The position numbers and the translations under genes were made by a program. Shown here piece after piece: positions 6,722 through 38,888 of a stretch of 64,000 bases of DNA. The notes below the pieces were generated by a model. That model searched no databases. It had not been told where the DNA came from and saw only the letters and a list, made by a program, of their open reading frames with translations. Numbering within the stretch: the stretch's first letter is position 1; each line of letters begins with the position of its first letter. The stretch lies in sequence record MT968995.1. One strand, given 5' to 3'. The stretch is from Escherichia phage vB_EcoM_WL-3.

Positions 6722-6757
6722 TTAATAATACCACAGTTTGAACTTCTTGTAAACAAC
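6722..6757 (-). promoter_or_regulatory. T4-type early promoter (-35 GTTTACA, -10 TATTAT, A/T-rich upstream element)
   Basis: Minus-strand GTTTACA (6748-6754 rc) and TATTAT (6725-6730 rc), 18-nt spacer. Confidence 0.5.
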
Positions 6758-17078: not shown

Positions 17079-17606
17079 TTATGCGAGTACCGTCTTTAAC
17101 CGTTCTTCAAACTTCCGAAGAGTATTTTGGCGTTCAGCTCTTTGCTTTTTGTAAGTTTCAATACGCTCTGAAATGAGAGTGTATCGTTCATTTACTGATT
17201 CTTTCATAAAATCAGGAATTTCACGAGAAGCTTTAATCTCGTCAAATTTATCAATAACAGCTTGCTCTTCAGCAATTAAGTTATCATACATTAAAATATC
17301 TTTCTTGATAAACTCAATATCTTCTTGAGTTACACGAGATAATTTAGATGCTTTATCCTTTTTGTACTGTTCGTTAGTATCACGAGACCAGTGTAATGTA
17401 CGATTTTTATTCGTATTTTTGTAAATTTCTACAATACCGATCTCATCGATAATAACGATCCAATTCCAACGGGATTTGTAAATTTGTCCTCCATCAACAG
17501 TGATTTCACCTCCGATTGAGATGTCATTAAAGAACTTGCTTTGCGCTTCAGATTTAAATTTACCATCGTTGTAATTTACTAAGTTGAAAATATCTTTAGC
17601 GTTCAT
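17079..17606 (-). CDS. Hypothetical protein
   Basis: 175 aa; ATG with GGAGG SD; early promoter upstream. Confidence 0.6.
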   Translation of the reverse strand: MNAKDIFNLVNYNDGKFKSEAQSKFFNDISIGGEITVDGGQIYKSRWNWIVIIDEIGIVEIYKNTNKNRTLHWSRDTNEQYKKDKASKLSRVTQEDIEFIKKDILMYDNLIAEEQAVIDKFDEIKASREIPDFMKESVNERYTLISERIETYKKQRAERQNTLRKFEERLKTVLA

Positions 17607-17631
17607 TTTCTGTTCCTCCGTAGTTGATAGT

Positions 17632-17667
17632 TGTATAGTACCACAGAGGAACAGTCTTGTAAACCAC
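17632..17667 (-). promoter_or_regulatory. T4-type early promoter (-35 GTTTAC, -10 TACTAT)
   Basis: Minus-strand GTTTAC (17659-17664 rc), TACTAT (17635-17640 rc), 18-nt spacer. Confidence 0.45.
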
Positions 17668-19070: not shown

Positions 19071-19106
19071 TGTATAGTACCATAAAGCTTTATGCTTGTA
19101 AACAAT
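19071..19106 (-). promoter_or_regulatory. T4-type early promoter cassette (-35 GTTTACA, -10 TACTAT, A/T UP element)
   Basis: Minus-strand GTTTAC (19098-19103 rc), TACTAT (19074-19079 rc); near-identical copy at 32970-33005. Confidence 0.5.
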
Positions 19107-19135
19107 TTTGTGAAAAAATTTTTGAAATAAAAAAA

Positions 19136-19153
19136 GGGAGCCCGAAGGCTCCC
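19136..19153 (-). terminator. GC hairpin GGGAGCC-CGAA-GGCTCCC
   Basis: Perfect stem-loop immediately after the stop of ORF 19156-20202. Confidence 0.45.
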
Positions 19154-22508: not shown

Positions 22509-22543
22509 GTATAGTATCACAACTCAAATGGAAAGTAAACCGG
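22509..22543 (-). promoter_or_regulatory. T4-type early promoter (-35 GTTTAC, -10 TACTAT) with flanking inverted repeat
   Basis: Minus-strand GTTTAC (22535-22540 rc), TACTAT (22512-22517 rc); GTTGT/ACAAC inverted repeat around -10. Confidence 0.45.
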
Positions 22544-22556
22544 TAAAATGAAAAAA

Positions 22557-22572
22557 GTCTCCCGAAGGAGAC
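22557..22572 (-). terminator. GC hairpin GTCTCC-CGAA-GGAGAC
   Basis: Stem-loop after the stop of ORF 22578-22964. Confidence 0.4.
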
Positions 22573-22577
22573 TAATG

Positions 22578-26018: not shown

Positions 26019-26480
26019 TCATTGAGTTTTAATTACTGCTTTAGAAGCCTTTCCTGGTAAACGACGACTATTGATAATTGCCATCCTGCATTGAAGCGAC
26101 GGGTCTTTGAACTTCGCATTAGGTTTACAAACTGTAAATCCAAGCCAAAGATTTCCATCTGTGATTTCTAAACGTCCAGGACGGTATTCAACCCCATCAA
26201 TAAAATCCTCATCAATGTCAGGACGCGGAGGCATACTCAGGAATTCATTAACTTCTAAAACATGGTCTTTTATTTTGTGGAATAATTCAAAAACATATGT
26301 CTCATCAATCTCCCGTTGAATTGCACGATCAAGAAGATGCTGAGAATATTTTAGATGAAACGATGAGACCCCTGCTGCTTTTGATGCCTCACGAATCTCA
26401 TTGTTAATTTGACGAAACTCCGACTCAAAGTGACGACGAAGCTTATTTCGACGGATAAAAACTTCTGTATTGATAGTCAT
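26019..26480 (-). CDS. regB: Site-specific endoribonuclease RegB
   Basis: 153 aa; length and position match T4 RegB. Confidence 0.8.
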   Translation of the reverse strand: MTINTEVFIRRNKLRRHFESEFRQINNEIREASKAAGVSSFHLKYSQHLLDRAIQREIDETYVFELFHKIKDHVLEVNEFLSMPPRPDIDEDFIDGVEYRPGRLEITDGNLWLGFTVCKPNAKFKDPSLQCRMAIINSRRLPGKASKAVIKTQ

Positions 26481-26504
26481 GTTGTTCTCCTCTTAACTGA
26501 TAGA

Positions 26505-26540
26505 AAAATTATACCACAGTCAAGAGGAAAAGTAAACAGT
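26505..26540 (-). promoter_or_regulatory. T4-type early promoter (-35 GTTTAC, -10 TATAAT)
   Basis: Minus-strand GTTTAC (26532-26537 rc), TGGTATAAT (26508-26513 rc), 18-nt spacer, upstream of regB. Confidence 0.5.
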
Positions 26541-31970: not shown

Positions 31971-32564
31971 TTATTTCAGAGAATTAATGTATTCCTGAAC
32001 ATCGGCAGAGGTAGTTTCAACCCCAGAAATATTACCGTTAAAGGTTTCAACTCGAGCAAGGGTATCTTCAATATCAACCTTAGTCAGTGCTGCAATTTCA
32101 ACTACATCATCAGCAGTACTAATTCCAAGGGCATTTGCTGCACGAGTTTCACGGATATATTCCAATTTAACCGCAAGTTCTTGACGAGCATCATCTAACT
32201 CAACTACTTTCTTGGCGATTTCAATTCGCATTTCAGCATAACCGTCAGCCTTAGTAGTCAACTGCTCAGCTGTTCGACGATATAGTAAACCGAGTTTAGC
32301 ATGCATTGTTACATCTTGGCCTTCGAAAAGAAGTTTACGAATTTCACGCTCTTTTGATTCGGCCTGTCGATTCTTTTCGATAACAAGTTCACGAATACGT
32401 TTTTCTTCGTTAATAGATTTAACAGAAGCAGTTTTTAGATCTTTAATTTTATCAAGTAGTTTTGCTGCTGCAGCAGTATACTGTTCTTCGACAGATAGAT
32501 TTTTAGCCATAGCAGAACCAAGTTTAGTGCGAATAAACTCAACAATTTTCTTCAGTGTGTTCAT
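31971..32564 (-). CDS. Coiled-coil protein, possibly PspA/IM30-like
   Basis: 197 aa; all-helical, heptad-rich; weak by-eye resemblance to PspA family. Confidence 0.55.
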
Positions 32565-32665
32565 AGTATTTCCTTAGGTTAATTGAGATTTAAAATCCGT
32601 AGGAGTATAATACTCTATCGTCAAATTATAGGCTCATAATATCTCAATCATGAGCCTGCGTAAAC

Positions 32666-32929
32666 TTATTTCATATTATTGAAATATTCTTCTGCGATTT
32701 CGTCGTTATCATGGTAAACTTTAGAAGACAGTTTAACATAACCTTCTGCTGTGAACATATTAATCACAACTTTTACAGTATACCACTGACCGTCTTCATT
32801 ACCCATTACTGCGTAAGTTTCAAACATCGGATGATCAGGACCGATAACTTTAATATCATTCACTGTATGACCGAAATCTTCTGAAACGCATTTCATAAAG
32901 AAGTTGAACAGTTCGCCGTAATTATCCAT
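32666..32929 (-). CDS. Hypothetical small acidic protein
   Basis: Start moved to ATG 32929 (GGAG SD); upstream 40 codons of the track ORF are translated promoter. Confidence 0.5.
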   Translation of the reverse strand: MDNYGELFNFFMKCVSEDFGHTVNDIKVIGPDHPMFETYAVMGNEDGQWYTVKVVINMFTAEGYVKLSSKVYHDNDEIAEEYFNNMK

Positions 32930-32969
32930 TTCATTCTCCAAGTTGTTTTCTGTATCAGTAGTTGATAGT

Positions 32970-33005
32970 TGTATAGTACCATGGAAGAACAGAGATGTAA
33001 ACAGT
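32970..33005 (-). promoter_or_regulatory. T4-type early promoter cassette (-35 GTTTACA, -10 TACTAT), near-duplicate of 19071-19106
   Basis: Minus-strand GTTTAC (32996-33001 rc), TACTAT (32973-32978 rc). Confidence 0.5.
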
Positions 33006-33132
33006 TTTGTGAAAAAATTTTTAGGGAATTCTAGGGCAGGGATGGGCAATTAAAGGATAGGATAATATATTATAAAGGGTATAAACTAAATGATGCCTAG
33101 AGAGGTCCAGAAAGGCCTAGATACCAAAAAGC

Positions 33133-33151
33133 CCTATCATTTAGATAGGGA
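33133..33151 (-). terminator. Hairpin CCCTATC-ATTTA-GATAGGG
   Basis: 7-bp stem immediately after the stop of ORF 33159-33722. Confidence 0.4.
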
Positions 33152-33158
33152 TTTAAAA

Positions 33159-33722
33159 TTATTTACCTAGTTTAGTTATTATAGCTTCGGCAGCAGCTTT
33201 TAGCTTAGATGCGGTGTTAATACGATTTTTAATTTCAGTATACGCATCGCCAAGAACGTCGAGGCTATCAGAATAAACACTTACACTATTGCGTTCGCTA
33301 TTTGAAATAGAACCTTTAGTTTTGCGGTCAAAATCGGTGTACACGTCTTGAAGATCGCGGGCTGCCTTCTTTGCATCATCCAATGCATCAAGAGCTTTAT
33401 TCAAAGCATTAACGTATTTTTTAGTGTCGAACATATTCTTAGAAATTTTAACAGGTGCGCGTTCAGGAGTAGCTAACACAGATTTAGGAACCTGAGCGCC
33501 AGATGCCAATTTCTTAGAAATTTTGAAAAATGCTTTATTGAATTTATTTTCTTGACTCATTGTAAAAGAACTATTATCGATGTTGTACATTTCAATAGCT
33601 TTAGCTTTCCACTTAAGAAAATCGCCGCGGTCTTTTGGATCCAATTGGAAGAATACTTTAGTAAGTTCTGCTTCAGATGGTAATTTTGCTGCTTCGGTTA
33701 AAAATTCGGCATAGGTTTTCAT
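33159..33722 (-). CDS. Capsid-targeted internal protein (IPIII-like)
   Basis: 187 aa; N-terminal capsid targeting sequence MKTYAEFLTEA of the MKTYQEFIAE type; basic, Lys/Ala-rich. Confidence 0.65.
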   Translation of the reverse strand: MKTYAEFLTEAAKLPSEAELTKVFFQLDPKDRGDFLKWKAKAIEMYNIDNSSFTMSQENKFNKAFFKISKKLASGAQVPKSVLATPERAPVKISKNMFDTKKYVNALNKALDALDDAKKAARDLQDVYTDFDRKTKGSISNSERNSVSVYSDSLDVLGDAYTEIKNRINTASKLKAAAEAIITKLGK

Positions 33723-33812
33723 TTAAAATCCTTGAAATAATTTATCGGTCGGTTATTAATTATTTATTACTTTGTTATTATCCGTAACAGCATTCTCTAT
33801 GTGATTCAAACT

Positions 33813-33840
33813 AAAAAGCCCCAACCTTTCGGTCGGGGCT
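33813..33840 (-). terminator. Intrinsic terminator (10-bp GC stem, then U-run on the minus strand) ending the tRNA/small-RNA transcript
   Basis: AGCCCCAACC-TTTC-GGTCGGGGCT preceded on the plus strand by AAAAA. Confidence 0.5.
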
Positions 33841-34150
33841 AAGCCTTGCGGCAACCTTGTCGGGGTTCCACCTGCTAAGGCAAGTGTTTGTACGAAACGC
33901 CGGGATTCGAACCCGGTTATTAAGTAGTTGACGCTACTCAATATTTTTAAAAGGCCATATCTCGACCATATCCGAACGTTCCGTCAAAAACGCTACTCGG
34001 CTTACGGCAAAGATATTTCCTCGAATCGATAATTCGGTGCGCCGTTTCTGCTGTGATGTAAGAGGGCATCAACAAATCATAAAGATTTATTAACACAATT
34101 CCTTACCCAGGGAACATCAGTCCGACGACTTACCGGTAGCGACCCGGTTT
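33841..34150 (-). ncRNA. Small stable RNA region (T4 RNA C / RNA D-like, tRNA-like T-arm element)
   Basis: Non-coding 0.3 kb between terminator and ORF; GC-rich stems, CCGGG-TTCGAAT-CCCGG element; position matches T4 species 1/2 RNAs; boundaries not determined. Confidence 0.35.
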
Positions 34151-34151
34151 C

Positions 34152-34502
34152 TTAATATTCTTTTAAAGCATCAACCTGTTCACGACGTTTACGCCATAAA
34201 TCAATTGCTTCATACGCAGATTCAGCATTTCGAATTGGACGACATTTATATAAAGACTTGTGATTTTGATATTGTGTAGATAACGGAATTTTATCTAAAA
34301 GGTCTTTACGTTCAAAATATTCGTAACCATCTAAACCAAATGAACGATTTTTGAGAAATTGCCAATGACCATATTCGTTTTCGACATAAACATAATCTGC
34401 ATGCTGATAAAGCAAATTAATTACACGTTCAGAAATAACAGTGTCATTGTGATTAAAATAGAATGTTAAATCATGAACTACTAAATAAACATTACCTTTC
34501 AT
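34152..34502 (-). CDS. Hypothetical protein
   Basis: ORF track 116 aa. Confidence 0.5.
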   Translation of the reverse strand: MKGNVYLVVHDLTFYFNHNDTVISERVINLLYQHADYVYVENEYGHWQFLKNRSFGLDGYEYFERKDLLDKIPLSTQYQNHKSLYKCRPIRNAESAYEAIDLWRKRREQVDALKEY

Positions 34503-34521
34503 ATTTTCCTCACTTATAATT

Positions 34522-34597
34522 GGTCGAGGCAGTAGGGATCGAACCTACGACCTAGGACTTAGAAGGTCCTTGCTCTTCCTTCTGAGCTATGCCTCGG
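34522..34597 (-). tRNA. tRNA-Arg (anticodon UCU)
   Basis: Hand-folded cloverleaf; anticodon stem-loop GGACC-UUCUAAG-UCC; TTCGATC T-loop; encoded CCA. Confidence 0.8.
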
Positions 34598-34601
34598 ATT
34601 T

Positions 34602-34676
34602 GGCGGACATGATAGGATTCGAACCTATAACCAATCGCTTAACAGGCGATCGCTCTGCCATTGAGCTACACATCCA
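34602..34676 (-). tRNA. tRNA-Asn (anticodon GUU)
   Basis: Hand-folded; anticodon arm ATCGC-CTGTTAA-GCGAT; TTCGAAT T-loop; encoded CCA. Confidence 0.7.
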
Positions 34677-34680
34677 AATT

Positions 34681-34767
34681 GGTGGGGAGTGATGGAGTCG
34701 AACCACCCGAGTCGCAATGACAATGGATTTACAGTCCACACCGCTACCTCTACGGGATAACTCCCCT
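34681..34767 (-). tRNA. tRNA-Tyr (anticodon GUA), long variable arm
   Basis: Anticodon loop CTGTAAA identical to E. coli tRNA-Tyr; TTCGACT T-loop; encoded CCA. Confidence 0.7.
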
Positions 34768-34779
34768 AATTCTTAATTT

Positions 34780-34854
34780 GGTGGCCCTGGGTGGAATTGA
34801 ACCACCATCTGGCGATTATGAGTCGCTTGCTTGAACCTTCCAGCTACAGGGCCA
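34780..34854 (-). tRNA. tRNA with anticodon CAU (Met or lysidine-type Ile)
   Basis: Acceptor GGCCCTG/CAGGGCC; anticodon loop CTCATAA; TTCAATT T-loop; encoded CCA. Confidence 0.65.
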
Positions 34855-34861
34855 AATTTTC

Positions 34862-35347
34862 TTATTTTATGTAATATTTATTTAAAAACTTTCTAGCTTG
34901 AGTATGGCTAACATTTATAGCATTTGCATAATTTTTAATAAAACCTCGTTCATCCATATTAAAACTTTCTAATATTTTTAATCGTCTAGCTATCTCATCT
35001 TGACTTAAAGTACTTGCATTATTTTTAGAAATTTTTTCTAAGGACTGTACTGAGTGTTTTCGACCATTAAAATTAAAATTTTTAGATTTTGGAGGAAATC
35101 TATCATTTAGTCTCGCATCTTTTGTATTTTGATTATTAGTTGCGCAATATATGTTATTTAATGAGTATGGTCCTTTATCACCAAAACGGCACATACAGTA
35201 TTCATGACCCTTTCTTCCACGCTTATCATAATTTCCCGTTGATTTCCACCAATGCAACCACTCATCAAAAGTTAAATTCCATTCAATGTTTCTACGTATA
35301 GCAGAATTCCGCTGAGAAATATATTTTGCATAATCTTCTTTCATCAC
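34862..35347 (-). CDS. Cys/His-rich ORF in the tRNA gap; candidate mobile nuclease-like gene
   Basis: 161 aa; A/T-rich; motif NLTFDEWLHWW...GHEYCMCRFGDKGPYSLNNIYC; occupies the slot where T4 carries segB. Confidence 0.55.
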   Translation of the reverse strand: MMKEDYAKYISQRNSAIRRNIEWNLTFDEWLHWWKSTGNYDKRGRKGHEYCMCRFGDKGPYSLNNIYCATNNQNTKDARLNDRFPPKSKNFNFNGRKHSVQSLEKISKNNASTLSQDEIARRLKILESFNMDERGFIKNYANAINVSHTQARKFLNKYYIK

Positions 35348-35391
35348 AAATTTCTCTACTTATTACATACACTAAGCTAAATCAGCAAAAC

Positions 35392-35481
35392 TGGCGGAGG
35401 CGATAGGATTTGAACCTATGAGTCGCCGGAGCGACTGCCGGTTTTCAAGACCGGTGCATTAAACCACTCTGCCACGCCTCC
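35392..35481 (-). tRNA. tRNA-Ser (anticodon UGA), long variable arm
   Basis: Anticodon arm CCGGT-CTTGAAA-ACCGG; TTCAAAT T-loop; encoded CCA. Confidence 0.8.
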
Positions 35482-35483
35482 AG

Positions 35484-35557
35484 TCTCCATACAAGGATTT
35501 GAACCTTGGACCTCCTGATCCCAAATCAGGCGCTCTACCAAACTGAGCTACACGGAG
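35484..35557 (-). tRNA. tRNA-Pro (anticodon UGG), 3' CCA not encoded
   Basis: Anticodon arm CCTGA-TTTGGGA-TCAGG; 2 nt from tRNA-Ser (dimeric precursor as in T4). Confidence 0.75.
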
Positions 35558-35567
35558 TAAATTAAAT

Positions 35568-35641
<74 letters not shown>

Positions 35642-35646
35642 AAATT

Positions 35647-35733
35647 TGGTGCGAGAAGTGGGACTCGAACCCACAAGGAAATCATTCCGCAGCATTTTAA
35701 GTGCTGTGCCTTTACCAATTTGGCCATTCTCGC
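35647..35733 (-). tRNA. tRNA-Leu (anticodon UAA), long variable arm
   Basis: Anticodon arm CAGCA-CTTAAAA-TGCTG; TTCGAGT T-loop; encoded CCA. Confidence 0.8.
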
Positions 35734-35734
35734 G

Positions 35735-35807
35735 CTGGGAATAAAGGACTCGAACCTTTGCATCCTGGAATCAAAATCCAGTGCCTTACCAACTTGGCTA
35801 ATTCCCA
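35735..35807 (-). tRNA. tRNA-Gln (anticodon UUG), 3' CCA not encoded
   Basis: Acceptor TGGGAAT/ATTCCCA; anticodon loop TTTTGAT; 1 nt from tRNA-Leu (Gln-Leu dimer as in T4). Confidence 0.75.
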
Positions 35808-35904
35808 ATTATTAACAAAGGCTCTTAAGCAAGAACCCTTGATGATAGAGGGTATTAATCAGTGCGATATGAGTTAATAATAACAAATAATTCTTAAAGC
35901 ATAT

Positions 35905-36192
35905 TTACCATTTATAATAATACATATTTACGATGCATTCAAGACCCAAAGGATTCTTGAAAATATCATATTCAAGAGGACCTTTTTCTGTTTCAATAAA
36001 GAAATCAAAATTTACTGTATTAAATTTACGTTCTTCCTTCACTAATTTAACTTGAGAAGATGAACGGTCAATGTAAACCTTTTCAACTTCAAAACATGTT
36101 AAAATGCCATAATCATCAATCAAAGCTTTAGCCGCGTCTTGATCATATTTATATCCATTTTCAATGGATGATACTTTCGCATAAAGAATCAT
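35905..36192 (-). CDS. Hypothetical protein
   Basis: ORF track 95 aa. Confidence 0.5.
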   Translation of the reverse strand: MILYAKVSSIENGYKYDQDAAKALIDDYGILTCFEVEKVYIDRSSSQVKLVKEERKFNTVNFDFFIETEKGPLEYDIFKNPLGLECIVNMYYYKW

Positions 36193-36194
36193 TA

Positions 36195-36593
36195 TCAGCC
36201 TTCATCAACAATAGTGTGAGTATTAGCATTTACGATTTGCCACCAATCAAAGCGATTAGAATCCATCGGTTTGTTTTCATTTTCTTTGATAATGTCACGG
36301 AGTTCATCTTCAGAGAATGCTTTAGCGATTAAATCGGTATACCCACCACGTGGATAATAATTATCACCTGCAAACAAAAGGAAATTTACCTTCCCGGAAG
36401 GAACATACGCTTCCTTAGGATACTTGTTTCCTGCGTGGTCAACCACTTCAATATAACGGTAAGGAATATCGGTTCTTTCAACCCATTGCCATGCCGCCGC
36501 AGGGGAATCGAAAGCATCTACACCTAAACGATTATCTTCATCTTTAGACGGATTATTTTCGTAATCCGCATATACATAATATTCAACGTTCAT
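36195..36593 (-). CDS. Hypothetical acidic protein
   Basis: ORF track 132 aa. Confidence 0.55.
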   Translation of the reverse strand: MNVEYYVYADYENNPSKDEDNRLGVDAFDSPAAAWQWVERTDIPYRYIEVVDHAGNKYPKEAYVPSGKVNFLLFAGDNYYPRGGYTDLIAKAFSEDELRDIIKENENKPMDSNRFDWWQIVNANTHTIVDEG

Positions 36594-36778
36594 TATTCAC
36601 CTTTAGAAATTTTATCCATAACAATAGCAATTAAACCAATTAAAAATGCTACTACAAGTGAAAAAACATTTTCTGCCGTAGTCAATAATCCGCATATAAA
36701 TCCAACAAACATTGAAAAACTGAAAGCGGAAGCAGAAATTGCAATAGCAACATTTCGAATTAATTCACAACGTTTCAT
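36593..36778 (-). CDS. Small membrane protein
   Basis: 61 aa, two hydrophobic segments. Confidence 0.5.
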   Translation of the reverse strand: MKRCELIRNVAIAISASAFSFSMFVGFICGLLTTAENVFSLVVAFLIGLIAIVMDKISKGE

Positions 36779-36797
36779 TTTATTCTCCTCAGTAGTA

Positions 36798-36838
36798 GAT
36801 AGGGTAATAGTATCACTACCCTATCTAAAAGTAAACTT
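36798..36838 (-). promoter_or_regulatory. Early promoter with stem-loop (PeSL-like cassette)
   Basis: -35 GTTTAC (36831-36836 rc), -10 TACTAT (36807-36812 rc); inverted repeat GATAGGG...CCCTATC around -10. Confidence 0.5.
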
Positions 36839-37070
36839 ATTTTTTACGAAAAATTGATTTATTTTCTGCTGCCCATTTTTCAATAACTGCAGCAGGACCA
36901 GTAACAACAATTTTATCACCGTAATCTTCTGCGGCGAGTTGACCGAAATTATCTAATGCATCACGAAGAACTCCATGAGGCATTTCACCCATTTTATCTT
37001 TCTTGCCAGTGTAAATAAACTCAACTTTTACATCAGCAGTTTCAGCAATAAATTCTTGGTAAGTTTTCAT
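36837..37070 (-). CDS. Capsid-targeted internal protein (IPI-locus ORF)
   Basis: 77 aa from ATG 37070; starts MKTYQEFIAE (canonical capsid targeting sequence). Confidence 0.65.
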   Translation of the reverse strand: MKTYQEFIAETADVKVEFIYTGKKDKMGEMPHGVLRDALDNFGQLAAEDYGDKIVVTGPAAVIEKWAAENKSIFRKK

Positions 37071-37096
37071 TTTGATTTCCATTTGGTTTTGTTTTG

Positions 37097-37136
37097 ATAG
37101 GGTAATAGTATCACAACTAAAACCCTATGTAAACAA
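37097..37136 (-). promoter_or_regulatory. Early promoter with stem-loop (PeSL-like cassette)
   Basis: -35 GTTTAC (37129-37134 rc), -10 TACTAT (37105-37110 rc); inverted repeat ATAGGG...CCCTAT. Confidence 0.5.
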
Positions 37137-37146
37137 CTTTGTGAAA

Positions 37147-37404
37147 TTATTTTAAATCTTCTAATCGTTTCTTCATCTTAGAACCATTTTTAGCAATTTC
37201 TCCTGCATCGGAGCATAATGCTAAAAGTGCTTTAACTTTAGTTTGGTCTCCTTTAAAAGATGAAGGATCGACCGCAGCAGCAAGTTCTTTAATACGAGAG
37301 AAAAGACGCTCAGCTTCAGCTAAAGCCATTCCAAGCTTTACTTCCATACCGTGGGAAGATTCAGTGATAGTAGTTTTTGTAGCAAACTCTTTGAAAGTTT
37401 TCAT
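37147..37404 (-). CDS. Capsid-targeted internal protein (second IP-locus ORF)
   Basis: 85 aa; starts MKTFKEFATKTTITE (capsid-targeting-like); Lys/Ala-rich. Confidence 0.6.
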   Translation of the reverse strand: MKTFKEFATKTTITESSHGMEVKLGMALAEAERLFSRIKELAAAVDPSSFKGDQTKVKALLALCSDAGEIAKNGSKMKKRLEDLK

Positions 37405-37426
37405 TTTTATTTTCCTAATTAATTTT

Positions 37427-37467
37427 GATGAGGTAATAGTATCACTACCTCATCAGTATGTAAACAA
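37427..37467 (-). promoter_or_regulatory. Early promoter with stem-loop (PeSL-like cassette)
   Basis: -35 GTTTAC (37460-37465 rc), -10 TACTAT (37436-37441 rc); inverted repeat GATGAGG...CCTCATC (compensatory versus the other two copies). Confidence 0.5.
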
Positions 37468-37477
37468 CTTTGTGAAA

Positions 37478-38162
<685 letters not shown>

Positions 38163-38163
<1 letters not shown>

Positions 38164-38888
38164 TATAGTACCTTTAGTGTATTTTTAATTTTAGAAAAAA
38201 GTTCTTCAAGAGAACCATCGTTTGTAATTACTAAATCGCCATCACGAATTGGCAATCCAGCTTCTGTAATATGTGTATCATTGGATTTTTGACCAGGACG
38301 AACTACATGAATTACTGTAGCACCCATCGCCCTAGCCGCATCCATTTCATGATCTTGACGGGTATCAGGAACGATATAATAATCATAACCTGAGTTAAAT
38401 TTATCAAGATAATCTAAAGCAAATAATTTTACCCAGTACATGCGGTCGAAGTTATTAACAATCAAATCCGTACCTAGGGCTTGCATCAGACGACGGACTG
38501 ACCATTGATCTTCAATATTATTTATAACGTCAATAATCTTGTTAAATGCTACGGAATTAACTGATTCTTGTCCTTCGTCATCAAAAACAAACACACCTTT
38601 AATTGGGCTTTTACCATTAAGATAGCAAAATGCTTGTTCCATAATCGTGATTACTTCTAATTTAGTTAGATTTAAATTAGTCTCACGATCATAGTCAATT
38701 CCTTCAAACTCTTTACGAGTTAAGCAAGGATAGTCGGTATTTGCTGCAAATACTCCCCATGCATAAGCCAATGCATCCTTAATAGGACCAGCAAGTTGGT
38801 ATTTAACTGCAGAATAATTGCTCATGATAAAATCAGCAGTAGTATCTTTTCCACTACGCTTTACACCGCTTAAAAAGATTAGTTTCAT
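38163..38888 (-). CDS. 1: Deoxynucleoside monophosphate kinase gp1
   Basis: 241 aa; P-loop GVKRSGKDT; matches recalled T4 gp1. Confidence 0.9.

Follow-up and report, generated by a model that had tools for sequence, protein, structure and literature searches.

The spacers between genes 57B and trna.4 of Escherichia phage vB_EcoM_WL-3 carry three predicted early promoters, each lying within an inverted repeat whose arms differ from spacer to spacer and yet remain complementary. The question raised by this locus is what such promoter-containing hairpins do, and how they relate to the exchange of the genes that they separate. The window analysed here is a 64,000-nt stretch from sequence record MT968995.1; the phage is a Tequatrovirus, 100% identical to Escherichia phage Paracelsus over the 2.5 kb compared. 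The gene order is 57B(Acb1)–ip5–ip6–trna.4, with all genes on the minus strand, and the same order is annotated in relatives; this is the T-even ipI (57B-trna.4) hyperplastic locus. Its conserved anchors are 57B upstream (37478..37936; Pfam Acb1, PF23474, E 2.7e-60) and the trna.4 homologue downstream (36593..36778; 61 aa). The former is the anti-CBASS gene acb1, which the internal protein (IP) locus adjoins. Between the anchors are ip5 (37147..37404), which encodes an internal head protein of 85 aa starting MKTFKEF (phrog_3499, E 1e-49), and ip6 (36837..37070), whose product, an internal virion protein, has 77 aa when counted from MKTYQEF (phrog_8111, E 1.5e-52; an alternative in-frame ATG at 37082 would prepend MEIK). 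Both products fall into PHROG internal protein families and have the conserved IP leader of about 11 residues, the capsid-targeting sequence (CTS). In ip5 this leader occupies the first ~11 codons (37372-37404) and constitutes an additional conserved recombination block; homology between T4 ipI and ip5 ends about 35 nt inside the ORF.

The promoters are readily recognized. GTTTAC-N18-TACTAT occurs at 37436-37465, 37105-37134 and 36807-36836, one copy per spacer and each with an extended-10 TG, and the pattern has seven matches in the window against 0.03 expected. Cassette 3 (37405..37477, the 57B|ip5 spacer) has an UP-like block, the -35 GTTTAC at 37460-37465, and a TG with the -10 TACTAT at 37436-37441. 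In cassette 2 (37071..37146, the ip5|ip6 spacer) the corresponding hexamers are at 37129-37134 and 37105-37110. In cassette 1 (36779..36836, the ip6|trna.4 spacer) they are at 36831-36836, touching the ip6 stop codon, and at 36807-36812, with the Shine-Dalgarno sequence (SD) GAGGAG. All three are on the minus strand, and a preliminary description of this DNA had located these -35/-10 cassettes before the IP-locus ORFs correctly. The same promoters can be written TTTACA-17-TACTAT with TG; measured against the sigma-70 consensus TTGACA-N17-TATAAT, they read TTTACA or TTTACT plus TACTAT, with 8-9 of 12 matches. They are instead of the T4 early type (UP-like A/T block, GTTTAC, TGn, TAnnAT), the weakest UP/-35 match being that of cassette 1. 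T4 early promoters are UP/-35/TGn/-10 promoters (PMC2988021), and promoters are annotated, by prediction, in the same two spacers of phage JB75. A literature search for T4 5'-end or transcription start site mapping found nothing usable. The cassettes had also been called near-identical, which overstates their likeness: an UP/-35 block of 33 nt and a -10 core of 14 nt are common to cassettes 2 and 3, and the similarity of cassette 1 is limited to the -35 hexamer and a core of 18-19 nt. Cassette 3 is identical to the T4 57B|ipI spacer over the aligned ~97 nt.

Each promoter is overlaid by a 12-14 bp hairpin that has the -10 in its tip; folded as RNA, these hairpins have a dG of about -17 to -18.5 kcal/mol. 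An inverted repeat around the -10 had been noticed before, but as 7-bp arms enclosing a 14-nt loop; the helix actually passes through the -10 (e.g., GAUGAGGUAGUG-AUAC-UAUUACCUCAUC), giving 12-13 bp that include two G.U pairs. The arm sequences themselves were read correctly: GATGAGG/CCTCATC in the cassette at 37465 (hairpin 37426-37455, GAUGAGG.../...CCUCAUC, loop AUAC) and GATAGGG/CCCTATC in the cassette at 36836 (hairpin 36796-36827, GAUAGGG.../...CCCUAUC). In the middle cassette (hairpin 37097-37128) the left arm is shifted (ATAGGGT in DNA), so that AUAGGGU pairs with ACCCUAU, and there is an inner 4-bp helix, UAGU/ACUA; an outer helix extends to 37091-37134. For cassettes 3, 2 and 1, respectively, constrained shuffles in which the -35 and TGn-10 were fixed give z = -6.1, -6.0 and -4.7, and dinucleotide shuffling of stretches of 81-91 nt yields z = -4.5, -3.7 and -3.4 (dG -20.5 for the 91 nt of cassette 3). 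The SD of all three is unpaired or marginally paired, and the 3' arm stops 10-25 nt before it. An Rfam scan of 32000-38500 at E<=1 returned just tRNAs and chance matches, none of them on the cassettes (36779-37477). The terminator at 33150-33132 has the arms CCCTATC/GATAGGG, but these 7-mers occur at near the expected frequency of about 2-3 per strand, which gives no evidence that it is related to the cassettes.

The arms vary widely among relatives. Across 59 related loci there are many arm sequences, of more than eight types and in at least four registers, with pairing maintained, and this pattern extends to distant relatives with other -10 hexamers. Since the left arm occurs in several registers, a single consensus structure fails, and we used a register-0 subset together with register-free tests. 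The covariation score, calculated for sequences that are phylogenetically related, is 0.244 against 0.151±0.014 in shuffles, above all 500 of them. Within the 27 register-0 variants, 73% of cells are paired, compared with 34-54% when the partner is slid, and in 7 of 13 pairs both partners vary. Native combinations of left and right halves, likewise from related sequences, fold at a mean of -10.4 kcal/mol, versus -5.8 for chimeras. One recombinant cassette, in L029 (AUGGGGU/ACCUCAU), has an altered left arm that pairs again. Hybrids with broken stems also exist (L020, L029), which indicates that the hairpin is not indispensable. These comparisons support selection for the structure, as the preliminary description had concluded from the differing but complementary arms. 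They also bear on the idea that a dimeric DNA-binding regulator uses the repeat as its operator, to which the dyad symmetry about the -10 might point. Because the arms change both within a single genome and from relative to relative without losing complementarity, they bear the signature of a structure and not of a sequence-specific site, and we reject this hardly credible reading.

The hairpin does not accompany every early promoter in the window. Six additional cassettes had been listed in the preliminary description, and all six are indeed T4-type early promoters, but a hairpin straddles the -10 at only two of them (17635-17664 and 26508-26537). The remaining four sites (6754, 19103, 33002 and 22540) have no such hairpin; at 22540 there is a separate UUCG terminator upstream. 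Together with 14687, they make up five early promoters in the window at which no significant hairpin was found, and four of the five have the same TGnTAnnAT core. Conversely, a hairpin cassette absent from that list lies at the e.8|e.6 junction (32636..32665, minus strand; AGGCUCAU/AUGAGCCU; z -4.4 and -3.6), where T4 has e.7 between two GTTTAC cassettes. At the two straddled sites, both on the minus strand, the hairpin reaches further: the promoter spacer pairs with the SD of regB (26470..26537; dG -23.1; z -6.8 and -4.9), and at 17597..17664 the ORF at 17079-17606 has the SD GAGGAACAG, which is complementary to the promoter spacer CUGUUCCUC (dG -25.4, z -5.4). The SD-sequestering version is also present upstream of trna.4 homologues in relatives.

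This distribution weighs on the proposal that the complementarity has no function, being a quasi-palindrome inherent in the promoter consensus that was extended by templated (quasipalindrome-correcting) mutation or shared ancestry. The three apex pairs (G.U, U-A, and G.U or A-U) are in fact set by TGnTAcTAT, and templated mutation of this kind is classical in T4. Such an origin would nonetheless leave the hairpin-less promoters with the same core as exceptions, and it accounts poorly for unrelated arms in at least four registers and with different -10 hexamers that all stay paired, or for native arms that outfold chimeras; we regard it as very improbable.

A further reading is that the hairpins act as unconventional transcription terminators or attenuators, like the stem-loops of the PeSL (promoter-early stem-loop) elements of phages phi1 and RB49, one of which lowered lacZ expression in the manner of rrnB T1, as described in PMC2839356. 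The hairpins do occupy the terminator position of the upstream gene and replace canonical terminators: of 99 distinct early-promoter cores, a straddling hairpin is present at 39 and a canonical upstream terminator at 9, with no core combining the two (Fisher p 0.011), a mutual exclusion that points to a role at the transcript level. However, none of the three hairpins is called by a terminator scan or followed by a U-tract, and their tails (CAAAAUUAAUU, CAAAACAAAAC and UACUACUGAGG) are A-rich, so that canonical intrinsic termination is unlikely. Their stems are also AT-richer than the poly-G/poly-C stems of PeSLs, and such stems are termed weaker by Arbiol et al. in PMC2839356. We lean against termination as the function of these hairpins.

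Swaps bounded by the cassettes, which the preliminary description had suspected, are apparent from the flanking gene content. Close relatives, defined by a 57B at least 99% identical, have one of five contents at the locus (ip5+ip6, ip6 only, ip5 only, ipI, or another ORF), and the distance between 57B and trna.4 in related loci varies from 79 to 1663 bp. The junctions between contents lie within the UP/-35 block, the -10/right-arm core or the capsid-targeting leader, and sequence identity differs sharply on their two sides (91.4% versus 99.3% in L036, for example). In 500 GenBank phage records, partial matches end at the cassette edges, with recurrent break points at query positions ~213-215, 258 and 316-326. 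Two crossovers, one between T4 and the window and one in L045, lie within the 21-24 bp at the hairpin centre. Comparison of relatives shows that recombination at repeated conserved blocks shuffles the IP genes. As the crossovers occur in all of the conserved blocks, and not specifically in the hairpin, plain homology suffices as an explanation; we know of no dedicated integrase or recombinase for cassette exchange.

A more active part for the inverted repeat would be that it forms a hairpin, or a cruciform, in DNA that is single-stranded or supercoiled, and there stalls replication or is cut, by endonuclease VII or some other structure-specific protein, and so creates recombination hot spots. 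The two crossovers at the hairpin centre fit this, and both DNA strands fold to an equal and significant extent (-8.0 to -8.7 kcal/mol, with z from -3.4 to -4.9). The excess of G.T over A.C wobbles (39 to 1) falls to 4 to 1 without the three consensus-imposed apex pairs, and the greater stability of the sense RNA is largely a consequence of the G.U pairs that the promoter consensus imposes. A recombination protein that binds stem-loops is a speculation offered by Arbiol et al. in PMC2839356. Against this, the other junctions are outside the hairpin, either in the UP/-35 block or in the CTS leader; the A.C mismatches at the tip of the antisense strand open a loop of about 10 nt that is unfavourable for cruciform extrusion; the same topology elsewhere clearly targets an SD in RNA; and the mutual exclusion with upstream terminators in the 99 cores points to a role in transcripts. 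We judge a DNA-level role unlikely.

We consider it highly probable that these elements are early-promoter/stem-loop cassettes of the T-even ipI locus, at which IP genes are shuffled by homology and the hairpins may handle read-through; judged from sequence, the three repeats are T4-type early promoters within a conserved hairpin, bounding swappable internal-protein genes. Each cassette opens with an UP/-35/TGn/-10 early promoter of T4 type, which host sigma-70 RNA polymerase is predicted to transcribe. Downstream of it come a short A/U-rich leader and an SD and then, where the gene is an IP gene, the conserved codons of the capsid-targeting leader. In the hairpin laid over the promoter, the 5' arm is provided by the -35/-10 spacer, the tip by the TG and -10, and the 3' arm by the discriminator/start-site region (..CCCTATC or ..CCTCATC). 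The cassette's own transcript is predicted to start ~7 nt past the -10, within the 3' arm, so that the complete hairpin would form only in read-through RNA from upstream or in single-stranded DNA. Our preferred reading is that the hairpin handles such read-through RNA, either through attenuation or through the formation or protection of 3' ends, and that translation would be silenced where the 3' arm reaches the SD; each promoter-ORF unit would thereby become autonomous. Among relatives, IP genes have been lost, gained or exchanged by homologous recombination in the UP/-35, -10/3'-arm core and CTS leader blocks. In this way the cassettes probably explain how T-even phages swap IP genes as units that provide for their own expression, shaping host range. 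The proteins encoded by this locus are injected alongside the DNA and are probably anti-defence; of the injected IP proteins, at least IPI (against GmrSD) and IPIII counter host defences, according to PMC9391042.

A tentative extension, which could well be wrong, is that a promoter within a hairpin is a general T-even device for telling cassette-started RNA from read-through RNA. The device might exist in two grades, short-range (IP type) and SD-sequestering (regB type), with a left arm that has re-evolved in several registers against a near-fixed start-site arm, and autonomy, rather than homology alone, might be what enables the free exchange of single-gene anti-defence cassettes. To our knowledge, only the late-promoter version of such hairpins (e, soc, 49 and I-TevI) is experimentally characterised.

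Early-promoter/stem-loop motifs that flank IP genes at two polymorphic loci were reportedly described by Repoila, Tetart, Bouet and Krisch in 1994 (EMBO J 13:4181). The arrangement is already known (Repoila 1994; Arbiol 2010; Comeau 2014), the 1994 description for T-even IP loci being credited in PMC2839356 and PMC4122927. The cassette-swap proposal is likewise documented, and the present work confirms it for one more genome and adds quantitative covariation and break-point evidence. Our cassettes share with the 1994 motifs the 57B-ipI-trna.4 locus, the phage group, the early promoter with an overlapping AT-rich stem-loop, and ORFs that have an N-terminal IP leader and vary in number, order and identity between motifs; nothing essential differs, ip5+ip6 here replacing T4 ipI. 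The match to PeSLs made in the preliminary description holds in a looser sense, since T-even IP-locus elements are called "PeSL-like" by Arbiol et al. (2010, PMC2839356), as analogues and not homologues of the PeSLs found in phi1/RB49; the name was widened to T4/PST by Comeau et al. (2014, PMC4122927). As in PeSLs (phi1/RB49, PST/T4 and nt-1/KVP40), a promoter, a stem-loop that may overlap the -10 and an SD precede small accessory ORFs in hyperplastic regions, and repeated copies delimit the indels and replacements that distinguish close relatives. PeSLs in the strict sense (phi1/RB49) differ in having a near-perfect TTGACA/TATAAT instead of T4-early GTTTAC/TACTAT with UP, and typically poly-G/poly-C stems instead of stable but mixed, AT-rich ones. 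For the PST/T4 PeSLs, a figure in PMC4122927 shows the stem-loop immediately before the promoter, whereas here the two are superimposed. Terminator activity, and mini-circles arising by recombination between copies, have been demonstrated only in phi1/RB49. At T4 e, soc, 49 and I-TevI, hairpins with embedded promoters silence read-through transcripts (as reviewed by Uzan and Miller 2010, PMC3014915); there too the promoter is inside the hairpin and both arms are present only in RNA from upstream, and the 3' arm pairs with the SD or start codon of the downstream gene. In the present set the SD itself forms the 3' arm at regB (26537), at 17664 and, in relatives, at trna.4 homologues. The T4 promoters are late rather than early, and IP cassettes 1-3 show marginal SD pairing or none. 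By analogy, finally, the cassettes resemble integron gene cassettes and the 'linker' model of Botstein for modular phage evolution, as discussed in PMC2839356, in that short boundaries, conserved and structured, delimit exchangeable single-gene modules; unlike in integrons, exchange here is explained by general homologous recombination.

The three cassettes lie in a minus-strand cluster whose order, from annotated relatives and T4, is gene 1 (dNMP kinase), 57A, 57B, ip5, ip6, trna.4, trna.3, trna.2 and the tRNA array. Over 2.5 kb around them the window is 100% identical to Escherichia phage Paracelsus and 99.6-99.9% identical to many other Tequatrovirus genomes, with 862 phage records matched in total. 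57B (37478-37936, -) matches Pfam Acb1 (anti-CBASS nuclease family, E 2.7e-60), and ip5 (37147-37404, -) and ip6 (36837-37070, -) match PHROG internal-protein families (E 1e-49 and 1.5e-52, respectively) and start with a capsid-targeting leader (MKTFKEF and MKTYQEF); trna.4 occupies 36593-36778 (-). A single gene, ipI, stands in T4 at the place of ip5 and ip6. Because 57B adjoins genes for injected internal proteins (IPs), the locus resembles a small neighbourhood of anti-defence genes. An in-frame ATG occurs further upstream of ip6 (37070-37082, -; MEIK-MKTYQEF), and annotated relatives and the PHROG profile begin at the second ATG (37070), from which the canonical leader is read. A third ORF with an internal-protein leader (MKTYAEFLTEA..., 187 aa; 33159-33722, -) is located away from the ipI locus, with the tRNA array on one side and e.8 on the other, at a position where T4 has no annotated gene; it is without an early-promoter cassette and is flanked by terminator-like hairpins (33840-33817 and 33150-33132).

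Each intergenic spacer carries, on the minus strand, GTTTAC, 18 nt and TACTAT, with TG two bases before the -10 (cassette 3, 57B|ip5, 37405-37477; cassette 2, ip5|ip6, 37071-37146; cassette 1, ip6|trna.4, 36779-36836). GTTTAC-N18-TACTAT has seven matches in the 64 kb, against 0.03 expected, and in sigma-70 terms the promoters read TTTAC(A/T)-17-TACTAT with an extended -10. Their assignment to the T4-type early promoters with UP/-35/TGn/-10 architecture (UP being the upstream A/T block), which the host RNA polymerase reads, is well founded (PMC2988021). In folding, the helix of cassettes 1 and 3 runs on through the -10 box, with 12-14 bp including two G.U pairs and a four-base AUAC loop, so that the TG and the TACTAT hexamer form the hairpin tip. 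Cassette 2 is of similar stability; its left arm is displaced (AUAGGGU/ACCCUAU), and it has an additional inner helix of 4 bp. The core RNA dG values are -17.4, -16.5 and -18.5 kcal/mol for cassettes 3, 2 and 1, with z scores of -6.1, -6.0 and -4.7 when the -35 and TGn-10 were held fixed and the remainder shuffled, and of -4.5, -3.7 and -3.4 for dinucleotide shuffles of 81-91 nt. The cassettes are real and non-random. The preliminary description had the motifs, the inverted repeat and the quoted arms (GATAGGG/CCCTATC, GATGAGG/CCTCATC) right, although the folded structure is larger than it described, and its term "near-identical" does not hold: cassettes 2 and 3 have in common 33 nt upstream (a UP-like block and the -35) and a 14-nt -10 core, but what cassette 1 has in common with them is limited to the -35 hexamer and an 18-19-nt core. 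The T4 spacer that precedes ipI is the same in sequence as cassette 3, and Rfam has no family for the element, a scan of 36779-37477 giving no match at E<=1.

The UP/-35 block AAAATAATTTCACAAAGTTGTTTAC (37442-37477 and 37111-37146, -; also at 6754, 19103 and 33002) is a quasi-palindrome that forms a small second hairpin as RNA, and its ~30-bp copies, dispersed over several early promoters, offer potential ectopic homology. One terminator-like hairpin (33132-33150, -), CCCTATC-TAAAT-GATAGGG followed by CTTTTT, is built from the 7-mers of the cassette 1 arms, probably by coincidence, since the number of these 7-mers in the window is close to that expected.

Whether the arms are kept complementary was judged across 59 loci, namely 57 found via the 57B protein (36 from IMG/VR and 21 from metagenomes), T4 and the window, which together hold 58 distinct GTTTAC-type cores in the 57B-trna.4 interval. 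Arm pairs among these cores include GATGAGG/CCTCATC, GATAGGG/CCCTATC, GGGTC/GACCC, AGGGCTAT/ATAGCCCT, AGGGTTAT/ATAACCCT, AGGTCTATAG/CTATAGACCT and GATGATGG/…ATCATC; more distant phages have other -10 hexamers and other arms (GGTAGGAC/GTCCTACC, GTGTAGG/CCTACAC and GATGGGATAA/TTATCCCATC). Its overlap with the conserved start-site motif (..CTATC) keeps the right arm always directly 3' of the -10, and the left arm occurs in at least four different registers. For the register-0 variants (n=27), 73% of cells are paired versus 34-54% with slid partners, changes fall on both sides in 7 of 13 pairs, and the covariation score of 0.244 was reached by none of 500 shuffles (0.151±0.014); in a register-free test, native halves have a mean dG of -10.4 versus -5.8 for left halves joined to foreign right halves, and 35 of the 58 natives fall within the best 5% of their own chimeras, although none of these figures is a probability, because the sequences are related. 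A recombinant cassette in L029 (L numbers denote related loci collected for comparison) joins a cassette 2 left module to a cassette 3 right module; a change in its left arm, ATAGGGT to ATGGGGT, has made the arms pair again. The covariation, the chimeras and the repaired recombinant support co-adaptation of the arms, as had been proposed from their differing yet complementary sequences, and arms and registers are too diverse to be accounted for by simple inheritance. Hybrids of a cassette 1 left module and a cassette 3 right module (AATAGGG versus CCTCATC) also occur, in L020 (6177) and L029 (5805); little of the stem survives in them (dG -7), which is what recent crossing-over at the -10 core should leave. 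In L020, GATACTATTACCTCATCAA is in addition tandemly duplicated.

An action of the hairpin at the DNA level is a possible but less likely explanation: both strands fold equally well as DNA, and G.T exceeds A.C in variable helix positions only 4 to 1. Promoter geometry would place the transcription start ~7 nt downstream of the -10 and within the 3' arm, so that a cassette's own mRNA would be without the hairpin, which would be present only in read-through RNA from the upstream gene. Consistent with a role in read-through RNA, hairpin-bearing promoters abut the upstream gene's stop codon; where the hairpin is missing, a canonical terminator tends to precede the promoter closely. Among 99 distinct early-promoter cores, a hairpin straddling the -10 is present in 39 and an upstream terminator in nine, and in no core do the two occur together (Fisher p 0.011, on non-independent data). 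On these sequence grounds the hairpin probably addresses read-through RNA. There is no U-tract after the hairpin at cassettes 1-3, which are therefore not canonical terminators; attenuation, 3'-end protection and processing are candidate roles for the IP-type hairpin.

Similar cassettes had been listed at six other sites. All six are T4-type early promoters, but they are not the same cassette, and only two have a straddling hairpin: the regB promoter (-35 at 26537; 26470-26537, -; dG -23.1, z -4.9) and the promoter of ORF 17079-17606 (-35 at 17664; 17597-17664, -; dG -25.4, z -5.4). In both, the 3' arm is the Shine-Dalgarno sequence (SD), the -35/-10 spacer pairing with the gene's own SD, so that read-through RNA would be translationally masked and promoter-proximal RNA unmasked. 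Spacer-SD pairing in this promoter-inside-hairpin topology is also found at the trna.4 homologues of L006, L034 and L038, and in T4 such pairing silences the read-through RNA of e, soc, 49 and I-TevI (PMC3014915). The promoters with -35 at 6754, 19103, 33002 and 22540 lack the hairpin; canonical C(UUCG)G-tetraloop intrinsic terminators (~19110-19140 and ~22550-22575, -) lie immediately 5' of the UP element at 19103 and 22540. A further hairpin cassette, missed in the preliminary description, lies between the e.8 and e.6 homologues (32636-32665, -; straddling hairpin AGGCUCAU/AUGAGCCU). In T4 (locus L003, 3940-4362) e.7 stands between two GTTTAC cassettes, and in the window e.7 is absent and a single hairpin cassette is left; a cassette-bounded gene difference thus recurs outside the IP locus.

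Within the IP locus, the 57B-trna.4 gap ranges from 79 bp (one cassette, no IP gene) to 1663 bp. Among phages that share at least 99% identity with the window in 57B, there are five gene contents: ip5 and ip6 (the window, L005, L041, L043 and L046), ip6 only (L036, L042), ip5 only (L045), ipI (T4, L044) and a different 102-aa ORF (L035). Homology breaks in the shared UP/-35 block in L036, in the 21-24 bp -10/right-arm core in T4 and L045, and, in T4 ipI versus ip5 and in L035, where the capsid-targeting leader ends, ~35 nt inside the ORF. The trna.4-proximal cassette of L045 combines the 5' half of cassette 2 with the 3' half of cassette 1, and identity jumps across the break points (e.g., 91.4% versus 99.3% in L036). 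In an independent sample of 500 GenBank phage records searched with an ip6-cassette 2-ip5 query, 158 have both genes, and partial matches stop where the ip6 leader ends (query positions ~213-215), at the base of the hairpin (258) and at the upstream margin of the UP block (316-326). Cassette boundaries therefore coincide with gene-content differences, and the two samples agree in this. Crossovers were found in every conserved block, and T4 recombination proceeds via short homologies (PMC2839356; PMC9391042); a role in recombination requires no special mechanism.

The phenomenon is already known. Repoila et al. (1994) described the same structure at T-even IP loci, as cited in PMC2839356 and PMC4122927, and Comeau et al. 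(2014) extended the promoter-early-stem-loop (PeSL) concept to T4/PST, citing the IP locus again (PMC4122927). Our analysis adds to this by delimiting the whole hairpin, which has the -10 at its tip, by quantifying covariation across many arm types and registers, by mapping the break points explicitly, and by making a link to SD-sequestering early-promoter hairpins. The published layout of the PST/T4 PeSLs is terminator-then-promoter, as at ~19110-19140 and ~22550-22575 of the window. For the T-even IP loci, Arbiol et al. (2010) called the elements "PeSL-like", analogues rather than homologues of the phi1/RB49 PeSLs, built on T4 early promoters and with weaker, AT-richer stem-loops (PMC2839356). 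Cassettes 1-3 lack both the sigma-70 consensus promoter and the poly-G/poly-C stem of the strict phi1/RB49 PeSLs, for whose stem-loops terminator activity was measured (Arbiol et al. 2010, PMC2839356), and they show every feature of the T-even IP-locus motif that sequence can reveal. The proposed match to PeSL-type shuffling elements is supported at this level, with the cassettes read as PeSL-like analogues rather than strict PeSLs (PMC2839356).
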